Assembly (NCBI GenBank): GCA_951406725.2
Contig: OX597815.1
Span: 131,688,001 to 131,752,000 of the forward strand
Source: Octopus vulgaris
Lineage: Eukaryota
Direction of reading: 5' to 3'
DNA length: 64,000 nucleotides
Part shown: in pieces, positions 1-54,541 of the stretch
Numbering within the stretch: the first letter of the stretch is position 1
Layout of the letters: every line of letters begins with the position of its first letter
Position numbers and translations under genes: made by a program
The notes under the pieces: generated by a model
The model's database searches: none
The model's input: only the letters and a program-made list of their open reading frames with translations
What the model was told of the DNA's origin: nothing

Positions 1-1550
1 CTATTTTTGATTCCATCATTTATGACTTGTACTAGCATTGGGTATATTAATTAAGGCGCTAAGACATATATTTATACATTTAAAATCCAGTTGTATTAAT
101 TTAATCGATAAGCTTAGGAACTTTGTTTATCAATATTATTTGGATTTTATATTATATTGAGTTTGATTGTTATTATTATTATTGTTATTGACTGGATTTG
201 TAGTGGACTGTCGGTTGTAGCTGAATGTCTTCATAGTGTGTTGTTCATTCGTTCTAATATTTTCGTACCTTTCTTTAATTTGTGGGGCTTAGATGTTTTT
301 CGTACTTTTCATTAGTAAATTGTTTTCGCCATTTTCATTGATAATTTATTTAATTTGTTTACACTAAGACTTCACGGGTTTAACTTTTATAAGTACTAAG
401 ACCTATATATTTTTTTACGTTTAAAATTCAGTTATATTATTTTCATCGACAAGCTAAGTAACGGTTTTTGCTTATAAATATTATTTGGCTTTTGAATAAT
501 ATTGGGTTTGATTATTATTGTTATTATTATTGTTATTATTATTGTTGTTGAAATATTATTATTTATATATATATTGATAGTTATAAGTTATGATAGTTAT
601 TAATTACGATATCTATTTATTAAGAATGATTTATTATTATTTTTATAAACGGATTTAACGTATTACATATAATTTAATTTGAGAATTAATTTTGTTATAT
701 AATACATTATTTAATAACTAGGCGGTATATTTATCAAGTAGTGTTACATTTAAGTAAATTAGTTCTGATATTAATTGATATTTTGGTCAACTATATTATT
801 GAGTGATATATTAAATCTATAGATACTACATATATATCAATTTTATTGTTAGTTTATATAATGGGTGTGTCTAAATTCTAACCATTTCTTATTTTTGATT
901 CCAGAATTTTTGGCTTATACTAGCATTATGTAAAGTAATTAATTTTAAGTTTTAATTGCTTAATGGGTAGTAGACTGTATTTGGATGTTTATTAAATAAA
1001 TATATTAATAATTTGATTTAATGTATATAGTTGAAATTGTTGTATATAGTTTTCACTTAATGTATATTTTGTATCTTATATATATATATATTAAATATAT
1101 TAAAGAATATATTTATTTTTAAAAGATTATTTACGTATATTTATTAATTAATTATTTTATTATTGTAGTTATTTTTCACCGGATGAGTGGCTATATTTAT
1201 ACTGAAGTGATTTTACTACTACTACTAATATTTTTACTATAATCATTTCTTAAATATAGCCAGGAAACATGTGTCTTTATTCTACCAAATATATACGTTT
1301 TATTGATTATTTTGCACATTACTTAATCATCGGTATATTTTTTAATCTTATATTTAATATTTCTATTATATGTAATTTTCTAGATGGTGCAATTTAATTT
1401 TTCATTTTCAATTGATAAAAGGTATATTTTTCTAATTTATATATATATTATATTTTGTGAAAATTGATTTAGTATTTCTAAATTGAATTTCTCCCTGTAA
1501 GTTGGAATAATATTCCCTGAAATTATTATTAAATACACATATAAATGTCT
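1..1550. repeat. Very AT-rich decayed repeat with diverged internal copies (about 1-190, 393-545, 887-945); probably an old PLE pseudo-LTR region
   Basis: Recurring blocks such as atttttgattcca...actagcatt and ctaagac...taaaat(c/t)cagtt; contains a degenerate HHR at 1177-1278. Confidence 0.4.
1177..1278 (+). ncRNA. Degenerate type I hammerhead relic
   Basis: CGGATGA-g-TGGCTATATTTA...TAAATATAGCCA-g-GAAAC-atgt-GTC; perfect 12-bp stem II, core U4 mutated, stem I lost. Confidence 0.55.
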
Positions 1551-2739
1551 TTTTTTTTTTCAGCCAATTGTTTACGTTAAGTCACTCTTAATGGAGCATA
1601 TAGTATCAGCATAAATAATATATAATTATAGTTATATATATAAATATAAATATATATATATATATATATATATATATATATATTGATACAATATATAATT
1701 GGTGATGGCAGATAACACATCAAAATACTATTGTAGCATTAGCCCTGAATAATGCCATCCGACAATATTATGTCATAACTAGTAATATATTGTTTGAACA
1801 TTACATACATTGACTCTGCTTTTGTTTCTAATTTAATGAAAACCAATTGATATTATCTACCTAACTACCTAAGTGTGCGTCTGTATCAATCTAGAAACTG
1901 CATTGTTGATGTAAGTACGCCAGTTTGCATGTGTCTAAGTGTGAGAATGAAGGCATGTTTGTACCTGTACAGAAACAAAGTTTATAAAATATAAGATAAA
2001 AAAATGCTAGACTAGTACACTAATATATATTCATGTGCGTAATTTTCTTCAGTACCTGTTATTAATCTAGTTACATAAAAAAAGTCTGTTGAAGTAAGTG
2101 AATTAACCAGTCTCCTAATCTTCCAAGTTTATATGATTAATGTTCAAATTCCAATGCCAAAATATTATATTGACGTACCCTTTAACATGACTTAACATTT
2201 TTATTGCATATAGTCTATTTTTCTCGGCTAAACTCATTCAATTTGTCCTCTCCATACGATCCCTTTCTTTGTCTCGTGTTTGTGTTCGACATCATTTTCT
2301 ATTTGTACGTTCCCAATATGCTTTTTAATCTTGGCTAGTGCTGGTGTTATCGAAGACTGACTAAGTAACCTGATCCTTGACTTCAGTTTCAAATGTATTT
2401 GCAATTACTTTCTACATCTAAAATGCCAAATAGAAATGAGAAAAGCCTGTATATTAGAATACTCTGCTTGTTTGTATAACATACAGGACATTTCTGTATC
2501 CTGGAATCCAATTCATGTTACATCTGTTGGGACAAAGTTTTCTTAACCGCCTTATAAAGTGATGTTGCCTAGAGAACAACACTTCGTTTGCATACAAATA
2601 AGATATACGAGGATGTGTTAATGCTTAATTAAAGAATTCTATTGCATTGATATGCAAGTTCTTGGGCAACAAAGCCGCCTTCAATCCCGCAACCAATCAG
2701 CGTCACCGACCAATCAGGAGCAGCCAGCGTGCCTATTGT

Positions 2740-3528
2740 GACAATATAAAGACTCGGCAAGGTCAGCAAGCTTGGAAAATGGGTACCACATGAATTGACT
2801 GAAGCGAACAAACAAGCACGTATCACAGCATGTCAAAATCTGCTCTGGTGAAGCCGAAGATTCGATTGGTTGGAGTCAGTAATCACTATGGATGAAAAGT
2901 GGGTCCTGTACTCCAACGTGAGGCGCAGATGATTCTGGTGTAGCAAAGGTCAACAGCGAACACCTTCGCCAAAAGGACCGTTTGTGCAAAACAAGGTGAT
3001 GATCTTAGTTTGGTGGGATTGCCGTGGTGTGATCAAGCTGGATCTTTTCCCATGTTATACCACCGTTGACAAGGATGTTTACTGCAAACAAATTGACCAT
3101 CTAAAGATCGCGCTGGCCGAAAAACGCACAAATTCGAAGACGATATTTTAGCACCAAGACAACGCGCCAGAACATCGTGCAAAGAAGACATCAGAGAAGC
3201 TGAAGGAAGCAGGCTGGGAGATTATGGTGCACCCACCGTATTCTCCTGACCTTGCCTCTTCCGACTATCACTTATTCTCTACCTTGCAACGCGCAATTGG
3301 CGATATAAAGTTCGAAAATGAAGATGTGAAATCGTTCCTTTGCCACGTTATTGATTCAAAGGCACGCGATTTCTGGATGAAAGGATTCAAAACTTTGCCT
3401 GAAAGATGGCAAAAGGTGATCAATAACGAAAGTGATTACATTTTGGATTGATTGTTCTTTGCTGATCTTTTAATTGTTAATAAAGTGATATGTTAAAAGT
3501 GTCCAAGAACTTTCGTACCAAACTGATA
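2740..3528 (+). mobile_element. Mariner (DD34D) transposon, 5'-truncated, transposase pseudogene
   Basis: Motifs KLGKWVPHELT, ITMDEKWVLY, HQDNAPEH, HPPYSPDLASSDYHLF; 34 residues between 2nd and 3rd D; in-frame stops; mariner-like right end ctttcgtaccaaactgaTA. Confidence 0.95.
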
Positions 3529-4184
3529 CATGAAGGACATTTTCCTCAACATATGGTATTTATCATCATCATTTTCGTTATCGCGGTAATTGTCGTCAAG
3601 ACCGTTGTTGTTACTATCATTCTCATCATCATCGTCGCTGCTGTTGTCGTCATCATCAGCATTATCTGTTTATATTTAGTACCCTTGAATTGTCTAAGTT
3701 GAACAAGGATGTGAAATCTTGATACGGCGTCTTTATCATTTTTATGACCAGCTGTAAGAGTTTATATTGCTATATTATCGACCTTATCAATACACGTAGC
3801 AATGTTTTGTCTTTCATGTTATTGCTGGGTAACAATCTTTTGAAAGGAAATAACATTGTTCATGAAAGGCTCTAGATCGATGAATCGCACATATATATCA
3901 CTTATACAGGGCGGAAATGTTTAACAGAAACTAATGTTGATATCAGTGAATTTATAAATCCCTAGATTTCGTTGACATTTTAATATGAATGCATTGTGGT
4001 GACCACAAGAGATTCATGTAAAATTAATAAGATAGAGCGGAAATAAGCACTTCAGCGAAAAAAGTCAGTATTTCAGGCTCATATTTCAGACATCTCAACA
4101 CGTAAAAGCGTTATCCGTCGGGAATATTTATGAAGTAAACAAATAAATAATTCATATATTATAAGGTAATTATCAATTCGCTCT

Positions 4185-53213: not shown

Positions 53214-53393
53214 GAGCAGCAGGAATAAAGCCACTGATGAGTCTAGATTTGCTGTATTTCCTGACAGTGGTCTAGTGTAGGTCTGGAGACTTTGTGATCA
53301 AGAATTTGATGTGAAAAGATTGCAGCCAATAATGAAACATGGCAGCTATTCTGTGATGGTCTGAGGAGCAATTTAGAGCAATGGTTGATCAAA
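53214..53393 (+). repeat. 180-bp copy of the neighbouring Tc1 segment 55384-55563 inserted in the PLE
   Basis: Identical apart from 2 substitutions by eye. Confidence 0.93.
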
Positions 53394-54505
53394 TGGTTGA
53401 AAGCATACGTCAATTAGTTCCTGGTAATGAGTGGGTAGTTTCTGGTAATGAGTGTATCCTTTAGTTCATGAAATCGTGTGTCTCTGATGTTTGCATTAGA
53501 AACTATAGCACATATCCTTTTTGCTAGGTTGAAGGGGATATTCATTCTGATGTATTTGGGGAGGCATGAATTGAGCGGTAGATATTGCTTGGAGTCCGTA
53601 GGCTTATAGTATATATCTCTTTCTATTACGTTGTTAGATTTCTTAATGAGGATGTCGAGGAAGGGCAGTTGTTGCTGGCTATATTGAATGTTTACGTCAA
53701 GTCCATTTAAAAGTGCTTGGATTTCTTTAAGTTTCTCCGTATTTTCATGCCGAAGAATGAAACAGTCATCCAGGTATCTCTTCCAGTTATTTTCTGTGTA
53801 GGAGGAGAGGAGAATGGGATGCCGTATTTTTCTAGAATCTTACGATAAAGACTAATTTCTAGAAATACAATGACTAGGTTAGCAAAGGAGGGGGCCATTC
53901 TCGTACCCATCGCAGTCCCCGATTTTTTTGGTAGAAGTTGTCTTTGAAGACGAAGCAGTTATTGTCCAGAATGAATTTTAGCCCTTCTATCACGAATTCT
54001 TTTTTGATGCGATGTGGGAGTTCGTTGGCGTAATTCTCTAGCCAGAATTGAATTGCCTCTATTCCTAGATTGTGGGAGATATTTGAATAGAGTTTGAATA
54101 CGTCGAAGGATACTAGTAGGGTGGTTTTGTTTATTGTTTTAAGAAGGTTATTGAGCATATCCATGTCGTCCCTTATATAGCTTTTGACATGCTTAAAGAA
54201 TGGTTTTAAGAGGGTATCTAAAAAATTACTGAGGCGGTGGGTTTCACATGCAGGACCCGCATTCTTCTTCTTCTTCTTCTTCTTCTTCTTCTTCTTCTTC
54301 TTCTTCTTCTTCTTCTTCTTCTTCTTCTTCTTCTTCTTCTTCCCTACCAAGAATTCACAACGACTTCGAACCCGCAAGAGTAAACAAGAGAGAGAGAAAC
54401 AGACAGAAACAAGGATAATGCCACTTGTATTTGAACACTATGCAAATATTCTTTTAAAAAACTTTTCATTTAAGTTTTCCAAAATTTAATTGTTTTCCAT
54501 ACTTA

Positions 54506-54541
54506 CAGTTGAAAAAGTCTCAATGACTGAAACCGGTACTG
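54506..54541 (+). ncRNA. Minimal hammerhead, U3-A8 variant, apparently intact; predicted cleavage after 54538
   Basis: CAG-TTGAAAA-AGTC-tcaat-GACT-GAAA-CCGG-TA-CTG. Confidence 0.8.

Follow-up and report, generated by a model that had tools for sequence, protein, structure and literature searches.

Tens of thousands of putative hammerhead motifs from Penelope-type elements in Octopus vulgaris, with all four Watson-Crick 3-8 pairs and likely selection for self-cutting

The base pair between positions 3 and 8 defines the active fold of the hammerhead ribozyme, and that it tolerates exchange has been learnt chiefly from mutants made in the laboratory and from a single natural swap, U3-A8. A stretch of 64,000 nucleotides of the Octopus vulgaris genome (contig OX597815.1, positions 131,688,001 to 131,752,000; hereafter the window), in which an initial annotation had read about 18 hammerhead motifs with differing 3-8 bases, raises the question of whether these motifs are true hammerheads and whether the pair is kept as its bases change. 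As judged from sequence comparison, the window samples a population of tens of thousands of motifs from Penelope-type elements (PLEs) in which all four 3-8 Watson-Crick pairs occur and which has likely been under selection for self-cutting.

Type I hammerhead motifs in the window

The window was searched with a descriptor in which positions 3 and 8 were left free, with 10 local dinucleotide shuffles as the control. Six matches were obtained (9911+, 46193+, 46166-, 54509+, 39509+ and 46781+), the shuffles averaging 0.1, and the initial annotation is borne out as to the type I order and the palindromes in stem III; a stricter first version of the descriptor gave 4 matches versus 0.13 in 30 shuffles. 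BLAST with family representatives returned 17 intact or decayed hammerhead copies in 7 families (four copies of family A, two of B, three of C, one of D, two of E, two of F and three of G). The majority of these copies are decayed, and only 5 of the 17 combine an intact core and stems with a paired 3-8, which does not bear out a figure of 18 working motifs; inserted copies are mostly decayed relics. The supposed 10 or so unrelated families came down to 7-8, of which B, C and D are carried by elements with related Neptune-like proteins. A core NUGANNA with GAAA and UH, and stems I-III in type I order, was found in families A-F and in a G3-C8 family from outside the window, and by sequence and stem order the window motifs are real type I hammerheads.

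Family states were counted over copies matching both anchors, all of them drawn from the 30 loci that matched best in each family. On this basis U3-A8 is the state of family A (31/32 genome copies), family B (23/23) and family C (26/28), and A3-U8 that of family D (30/30); the UUGANAA cores noted at 9.9, 46.8 and 52/54.5 kb and the AUGAUUA core at 31.6 kb are thus family states. A possible eighth family (17490..17670, 2 copies), read by eye only, has an inverted arrangement with CUGAAGA on the minus strand and an 8-nt palindrome on the plus strand. Several other candidates were rejected: the motif at 1177 is without GAAA-UH and stem I', as are its two relatives; the matches of that at 48406 place it in LINE coding sequence; GAAACGU at 37506 and 43415, presumably inside a tRNA-derived SINE, has no core upstream; and the motifs at 7756 and 11349 have no motif-bearing relatives in about 1 Mb. 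An Rfam scan of the window gave no hammerhead among the 150 matches listed out of 252. That list was filled by microsatellite-driven miRNA matches.

Elements that carry the motifs

Judged by protein likeness, families B, C and D are Neptune-like. Genome copies of family B have a Neptune-like RT-EN upstream of the hammerhead, with matches of their frames to RVT_1 (E 7.5e-8) and GIY-YIG (E 0.015, under the curated cut-off), and the C and D proteins are about 37-70% identical to these frames; Pfam returned only weak RVT_1 for four window frames. The family B hammerhead in the window (46777..46810, plus strand; core UUGAAAA, U3-A8, 2-bp stem II, 6-nt palindrome) has its stem I shortened by an inversion junction, and its inverted copy (46749..46782, minus strand) has one stem III change. 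The family C element (51825..54600, minus strand) is 5'-truncated and has inverted pLTR copies at 51875-52165 and 54262-54552, which enclose a broken Neptune-like RT and GIY-YIG (about 52569-54260). In the inverted 5' pLTR, the hammerhead (54506..54541, plus strand; core UUGAAAA, U3-A8, A17) has a stem I of 3 bp, which also reads as a splice-acceptor-like CAG, and that of the 3' pLTR (51886..51921, minus strand; one stem II change) has the sense orientation of the ORF and lies about 650 nt past the endonuclease match; a family C remnant with a decayed core lies at 35689..35724 (plus strand). A broken Neptune-like RT-thumb and GIY-YIG remnant (30677..31386, plus strand) ends 226 nt upstream of the core of the family D hammerhead (31607..31640, plus strand; core AUGAUUA, A3-U8, 5-bp stem I), a copy that has lost GAAA.

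The B, C and D hammerheads lie 120-650 nt downstream of RT-GIY-YIG remnants, and all three families have an RT followed by a GIY-YIG endonuclease at the C terminus, as well as a pLTR with a hammerhead and an inverted 5'-truncated copy. Between RT and EN, CxxxxCxxC was read in families B and C, a Cys-rich, zinc-finger-like linker being a stated PLE feature (PMC8557442). Of 29 family D loci of 3.2 kb, 14 had PLE protein matches, as compared with 3 of 60 random 10-kb stretches.

Family E comprises a C3-G8 hammerhead (46188..46262, plus strand; CUGAAGA, long stem II, 8-nt palindrome) and an intact inverted copy (46092..46173, minus strand). Family G, whose state is C3-G8 with A6U, is represented by a minimal hammerhead relic (14062..14092, plus strand) and by further relics at 26210-26233 (plus strand) and about 40950-40979 (minus strand). 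The G3-C8 family numbers thousands of copies of a non-coding element of about 260 nt that lies between (TA)n runs, often as inverted pairs; no linked frame was found at 3 loci read 1.3 kb upstream.

Families A and F and the relatives L121, L006 and L147 are retrozyme-like: short, non-coding, highly self-paired tandem units of 358-362 nt, or 433 nt in F, with one type I hammerhead per 358-433-nt unit, stable when folded as circles (z -4.3 to -5.7). The family A insertion (9617..10325) consists of an inverted 5'-truncated arm and 1.2 tandem copies of a 358-nt unit, with a 12-bp target-site duplication read from the sequence (left 9608..9619, plus strand; right 10327-10338), the left copy of which shares 3 bases with the element end. 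Its intact hammerhead (9905..9949, plus strand; core UUGACAA, U3-A8, 6-bp stem I, 4-bp stem II, 8-nt palindrome in stem III) has a predicted cut after C9943; an inverted copy (9827..9871, minus strand) has one stem III change, a tandem copy (10263..10307, plus strand) has decayed stems, and a remnant at 42300..42338 (plus strand) retains only the 3' half. A first-look count gave 2,054 family A candidates genome-wide, and these insertions bear a direct genomic sign of PLE-type copying in their inverted arms, their target duplication and their preference for two 3' ends that lie about 45 nt apart. Family F (38855..39775, plus strand) has two tandem copies of its unit with (TA)n runs on either side; the hammerhead (39506..39575, plus strand) has a 10-nt palindrome, and the upstream copy (near 39085-39146) has its core deleted. 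The C3-C8 combination of the copy at 39509 was rejected as the family F state, G8 being present in 10 of 10 genome copies fetched; the state is C3-G8, and C8 is private to this copy. Contigs from 4 of 24 runs, none of the runs being on record as RNA, gave cover and head-to-tail joints that genomic tandems also explain. The initial annotation had noted neither the retrozyme nature of families A and F, nor how widely A3-U8 occurs, nor the large G3-C8 family.

Pairing of positions 3 and 8 across the genome

An unbiased 600 kb (60 of 60 stretches) held 20 matches versus 0.5 in shuffles, and at a score of 10 or more there were 19 matches versus 0-1 for six decoy cores. For the whole genome, patterns with position 8 free were run with reversed controls, and 3-8 states were tallied by eye among the first 100 matches listed for each. 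C3 with an ACGU stem III gave 16,506 matches versus 666 in the control (G8 in 94/100 of those listed), U3 gave 7,640 versus 135 (A8 in 95/100), A3 gave 1,534 versus 106 (U8 in 88/100) and G3, under a looser pattern, gave 13,206 versus 6,790 (C8 in 73/100); one G3 family among the matches listed had C8 in 68 of 70 rows. A smaller C3 class (258 versus 66) had G8 in 56/100 and A8 in 32/100. The complementary base was thus the majority for C3, U3, A3 and G3, in agreement with the predicted excess of paired combinations, and all four complementary states occur as family majorities. Combined, four narrow patterns yielded about 30,000 matches above control; non-C3-G8 forms made up about half of the counted matches, the share that, as foreseen, a search with CUGANGA only would miss. 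Copy counts reflect few founder lineages, not independent events.

Counted by lineage, 3-8 is complementary in 14 of 16 multi-copy lineages, the other two being mismatch lineages, and in 6 of 8 when C3-G8 is excluded (binomial at 1/4, 3e-7 and 0.004, respectively, for lineages that are related to one another). A3-U8 spans several subfamilies and is kept across at least 3 different stem I sequences. Covariation of stems among homologues was seen in the A3-U8 subfamilies and in the retrozyme clade (6 rows), where unit A (U3-A8) is homologous to L121 and L006 (C3-G8; 60-74% identity) and double changes occur in 8 of 13 pairs, 3-8 among them, a level reached by 0 of 500 shuffles of these 6 hand-picked rows. 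Families A and L147 both have U3-A8 in a canonical 6-bp/4-bp hammerhead; homology between them is weak (52% identity versus 41-49% shuffled).

The mismatch lineages are small beside the paired ones. The C3-A8 subfamily is 93.6% identical to L121 and its 6 loci have shared flanks; therefore, it spread with the mismatch. Recurrent mutation from a U3-A8 parent was rejected as the source of these rows, their sister being the C3-G8 family L121. In 3 rows U3-G8 occurred together with a broken stem I, and 37 ACGU-class copies included 13 with A6U and 9 with U4C, only 6 having the canonical core. The amplified C3-A8 subfamily and the abundant A6U and U4C families count against strict catalytic selection. 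The argument from covariation to selection for catalysis therefore stood in part: 3-8 does covary, but C3-A8, A6U and U4C lineages spread as well, and catalysis is what we infer. Avoidance of an H17-N3 pair was also rejected as a rule; it fits the G3-C8 family (U17) and family D (C17) but fails for family C, where A17 could pair with U3, and for one A3-U8 row with U17.

Explanation, rivals and known systems

For 8 of 10 representatives, closing stem III in the monomer was predicted to cost +1 to +6 kcal/mol, and palindrome duplexes were predicted at -6 to -18 in 8 of 10, that of the G3-C8 family being negligible (-0.2 kcal/mol). The proposed PLE link and the suitability of the palindromes for dimer folding are upheld by the protein matches near B, C and D and by these favourable duplex energies. 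We consider it quite probable that the motifs are type I hammerheads of Neptune-like PLEs and retrozyme-like units, likely cleaving as dimers, whose source elements are likely selected for any 3-8 Watson-Crick pair. A tandem transcript would bring two motifs together, their palindromes would pair into a 4-10-bp stem III, and the RNA would be cut after H17, possibly with help from a PLE protein. Circles formed next from unit-length RNAs would serve a PLE RT-endonuclease as templates for insertion at AT-rich sites, and drift of the 3-8 pair from one state to another would pass through short-lived mismatch lineages.

The spread of the C3-A8, A6U and U4C lineages would also fit Penelope-derived motifs for which cleavage is dispensable, the paired 3-8 coming from few ancient founders or being kept for fold or protein binding. 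For the Anolis element PAc, cleavage is described as unnecessary for insertion in vitro, with no reads ending at the cut site (PMC11167929), Naiad PLEs thrive without canonical hammerheads (PMC8557442), and minimal PLE hammerheads show low activity in vitro (PMC4209133). We nevertheless regard dispensable cleavage as unlikely, given that the 3-8 pair belongs to the active conformation (PMC3884650) and has come through at least 3 independent double changes amid turnover of the stems beside it, and that mismatch lineages are small. Chance matches that an AT-rich genome full of repeats would yield and transposon copying would multiply are highly improbable: the G3 control is large (6,790 versus 13,206) and single matches such as L169 (A3-G8 inside an ATG repeat) look chance-like, but the 40-fold excess over shuffles, the 0-1 matches of decoy cores, the fixed pLTR position and the double changes in stems all stand against them, and a chance origin is already refuted for families A-D and F. 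Host-domesticated regulatory ribozymes acting at the window locus are more improbable still; no supporting point was found, and the copies are scattered repeats marked by target duplication, by inversion junctions and by decay private to each, with only 5 of 17 in the window intact.

PLE and retrozyme-like hammerheads, the reading we prefer, have close parallels. Those that Cervera and de la Pena (2014, PMC4209133) describe in metazoan PLE pLTRs are likewise type I with a palindromic stem III for dimers, lie in pLTRs downstream of RT-EN, form opposite-strand pairs, occur as many families per genome and include a U3-A8 variant (about 1,300 matches in S. mansoni); in D. virilis the intron end abuts stem I, and family C has a similar acceptor-like signal. 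The 56 motifs of Fig. S3 of that paper are C3-G8 with two U3-A8 and one U3-G8, and none is A3-U8, G3-C8 or from a cephalopod, whereas here about half of the matches counted are of forms other than C3-G8. The natural core variants of Perreault et al. (2011, PMC3088659) similarly include C3-G8 to U3-A8 covariation and U4C and position-6 variants; the section text of that paper does not name natural A3-U8 or G3-C8, both of which are present here. U3-A8 in PLE hammerheads, which had been thought possibly new, was thus already published (PMC4209133), and natural U3-A8 appears in PMC3088659 as well. Anolis Poseidon PAc (Frangieh et al. 2024, PMC11167929) also carries a PLE hammerhead, with an optional tail from two RT start sites; its cleavage is abolished by C3G or by G8C and comes back in part when both are combined. 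G3-C8, a laboratory double mutant there, is the prevailing state here in a family that numbers thousands of copies. Non-LTR retrozymes (Cervera and de la Pena 2020, PMC7229834; Li et al. bioRxiv 10.64898/2026.07.22.740005), for which a PLE origin is proposed, are alike in that their tandem units are highly paired and each have a single type I hammerhead. Their published units measure 170-400 nt (mussel 350-390 nt), slightly shorter than the 433 nt of family F; A and L147, known here from genomic copies, differ by U3-A8 in a canonical hammerhead, and A by its inverted arms, target duplication and two 3' ends about 45 nt apart. In the paper texts searched, no report of natural A3-U8 or G3-C8 families was found: A3-U8 or A3U8 with hammerhead was not found, and G3-C8 appeared only as a laboratory variant.

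With slightly less than even confidence, we suggest that C3-G8, U3-A8, A3-U8 and G3-C8 lineages are all active, that the C3-A8 retrozymes may be an intermediate of a compensatory switch, and that A3-U8 (more than a thousand exact copies) and G3-C8 (several thousand) had gone unreported; about half of the hammerheads would then be invisible to standard descriptors and animal censuses incomplete. Searches based on CUGANGA undercount, as the about 30,000 matches above control here and the 235 Rfam hammerhead matches given for the giant squid (PMC6962438) illustrate. The four-pair families, together with a mismatch sister 94% identical to a paired lineage, provide test sets for the crossing of an unpaired state, and the same families serve the question of whether the spread of Penelope elements and retrozymes needs cleavage.

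Hammerhead families and other repeats in the window

The host genome comprises 2.8 Gb in 227 contigs, and the window, at positions 131688001-131752000 of its contig, contains many microsatellites together with remnants of SINEs and LINEs as well as of Penelope-like elements (PLEs). When any base was allowed at positions 3 and 8, a descriptor of the type I hammerhead matched 6 motifs versus 0.1 per shuffle, and a search with family representatives recovered 17 copies, intact or decayed, in 7 families (A to G); a possible eighth lies at 17.5-17.7 kb. Five copies were intact throughout and had 3-8 paired. 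The initial annotation had counted about 18 motifs in about 10 unrelated families: the type I order was borne out, the motif at 1177 was not a hammerhead, and unrelatedness failed for B, C and D because their proteins are related and their 6-nt palindrome is identical. The unusual cores did prove to belong to families rather than to be private changes: among anchored copies, which for each search were drawn from its 30 best loci and are thus biased towards the query, U3-A8 occurred in 31/32 (A), 23/23 (B) and 26/28 (C), and A3-U8 in 30/30 (D). The C3-C8 at 39509 was rejected as a family state, being a private change (G8 in 10/10 genome copies).

The 3' end of an abundant SINE at 63285-63310 (+), with further copies at 25.7, 34.7, 39.8, 41.3 and 56.6 kb, has the look of a stem II followed by GAAA and a short tail and resembles the family C motif; the tail may derive from a PLE. 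Broken LINE reverse transcriptase (RT) fragments, presumably CR1/L2-like, lie at 31947-33731 (-), 13159-13638 (-) and 48376-48485 (+), and a LINE element at 31.9-34.6 kb directly follows the family D terminal repeat (pLTR). At 50600-50772, a nearly perfect inverted repeat encloses a (TA)n run; it gave miRNA-model matches only, by composition.

Covariation of positions 3 and 8

A 600-kb sample, cut from 15 contigs at round coordinates, yielded 20 motifs versus 0.5 in shuffles, with 0-1 matches for each of six decoy cores; the excess over shuffled sequence, a check named by the initial annotation, was found here as in the window. The 19 motifs scoring at least 10 were 11 C3-G8, 4 U3-A8, 2 G3-C8 and 2 unpaired, the last comprising an alternative register of a C3-G8 match and a motif within an ATG repeat. 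Patterns run on the whole genome, which differed between 3-states and missed family A and most of C, were compared with reversed patterns, and position 8 was tallied by eye among the first 100 matches listed (first contigs only): with position 8 free, U3 gave 7,640 versus 135 (A8 in 95) and A3 gave 1,534 versus 106 (U8 in 88); C3 gave 16,506 versus 666 in the class with ACGU stem III (G8 in 94) and 258 versus 66 in the stem III class of the A3 and U3 patterns (G8 56, A8 32, U8 10, C8 2); and a looser G3 pattern gave 13,206 versus 6,790 (C8 in 73), one G3 family having C8 in 68/70 among the matches listed. Complementary bases occupied 3-8 in 14/16 multi-copy lineages, and in 6/8 of those other than C3-G8, in a tally that omits four singletons or alternative registers. 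Six retrozyme hammerheads showed double changes in 8/13 pairs, 3-8 among them, and A3-U8 was retained over at least three stem I sequences separated by double changes. The 3-8 covariation proposed initially is thus upheld by genome counts, lineages and double changes.

The G3-C8 family, absent from the 64-kb window, is an approximately 260-nt element between (TA)n runs (stem I 7 bp, stem II 5 bp) with an intact core in 13/16 copies read and a palindrome predicted to form nearly no duplex.

Penelope-like elements and retrozyme-like units

Families B, C and D are hammerheads in the 3' pLTR of PLEs. RT and GIY-YIG endonuclease frames with a Cys-rich linker are present at family B loci, where a PLE tally of 28/28 was discarded since one query segment derived from the pLTR itself and inflated it. 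In the window, the family C element is a truncated RT-endonuclease flanked by inverted 291-nt pLTRs, its sense hammerhead approximately 650 nt downstream of the endonuclease, and the family D hammerhead lies 226 nt downstream of an endonuclease remnant; PLE matches occurred at 9/29 family C loci and at 14/29 family D loci versus 3/60 random 10-kb stretches. At 54483-54508 (+) and 51919-51944 (-), a motif resembling a branch point, a pyrimidine tract and a CAG end exactly at the family C U3, which is preceded by CAG in 26/33 copies and TAG in 2. If an intron ends there, as described for D. virilis Penelope, splicing would replace the stem I 5' strand. A short repeat at 53294-53454 recurs from 55464 onward, one copy interrupting the RT remnant of family C. 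The window also has a second PLE remnant, a more distant one, at 21645-22872 (-), with a YxRYVD motif in its RT and a GIY-YIG-like piece; no hammerhead was found downstream of it.

Families A (358 nt) and F (433 nt) are non-coding units with one hammerhead each. The family A insertion in the window has inverted and tandem arms and a 12-bp target duplication, and the 3' ends of family A fall into two groups, at unit positions 170-176 and at 217-221, in agreement with the optional tail that PLEs are described as having (PMC8557442; PMC11167929). Among related loci elsewhere in the genome, L121 and L006 are C3-G8 and 60-74% identical to A or to one another, and L147/L133 are U3-A8 and align weakly to A outside the ribozyme. 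Folding computations predicted stable circular folds for all units examined. Known here from genomic units, A, F and relatives fit the published non-LTR retrozymes (PMC7229834). L006:1-1410 comprises four tandem 359-nt units (C3-G8, U4C, 8-nt palindrome) that represent a further retrozyme subfamily and adjoin a family A copy. Approximately 1.4 kb upstream of the hammerhead, L004, L005, L006, L014, L018 and L021 have one repeat in common, in which a GIY-YIG-like remnant in antisense orientation is joined to a piece of family A; judged from these six loci, this composite has spread as a unit.

Departures from pairing, proposed mechanism and novelty

Several observations argue against strict catalytic selection. 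A C3-A8 subfamily of six loci with common flanks (L201-L206, e.g. L205:1-472), an amplified 360-nt retrozyme, is the sister of L121 at 93.6% identity and a candidate intermediate between paired states; speculatively, the pair could be regained through A-to-I editing at A8. U3-G8 has also spread a little, in a form whose stem I is broken. Among 37 ACGU-class copies, A6U occurred in 13 and U4C in 9 (8 and 6 of 19 in the random 600 kb), and three window copies are members of the A6U family. Minimal hammerheads with fixed A6U or U4C are very abundant (window 14062, 26210 and 40979; L071:1180-1220 and others). In the Anolis PLE, protein is reported to be needed for cleavage, and insertion in vitro proceeded without need for cleavage, with no read ends left (PMC11167929).

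The proposed mechanism starts from the observed anatomy, position, insertion structure and 3-8 covariation of the hammerheads. PLE hammerheads are described as cleaving weakly, as dimers (PMC4209133); C3G or G8C abolishes cleavage and the double change rescues it in part (PMC11167929); and folding energies made monomer stem III closure unfavourable in 8/10 representatives. The palindromes of two motifs in a tandem transcript would pair into a longer stem III, cleavage after H17 would release unit RNAs or predicted circles, and a Neptune-like RT-endonuclease may copy these. Selection would act on source lineages able to pass briefly through unpaired 3-8, and inserted copies would decay.

The hammerhead biology here is real and mostly known. 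U3-A8 is not new to PLE hammerheads: PLE motifs with palindromic dimer stems and U3-A8 were published (PMC4209133), natural U3-A8 also appears in PMC3088659, and a hammerhead count exists for a squid genome (PMC6962438). The 56 motifs of Fig. S3 in PMC4209133 include no A3-U8, G3-C8 or cephalopod, whereas A3-U8 and G3-C8 occur here; in the literature text searched, the sole find for either was a laboratory G3-C8, and an earlier mention may exist. What is probably new, and solidly observed, is that a single genome has each of the four Watson-Crick 3-8 states on the scale of families, together with a candidate mismatch intermediate.
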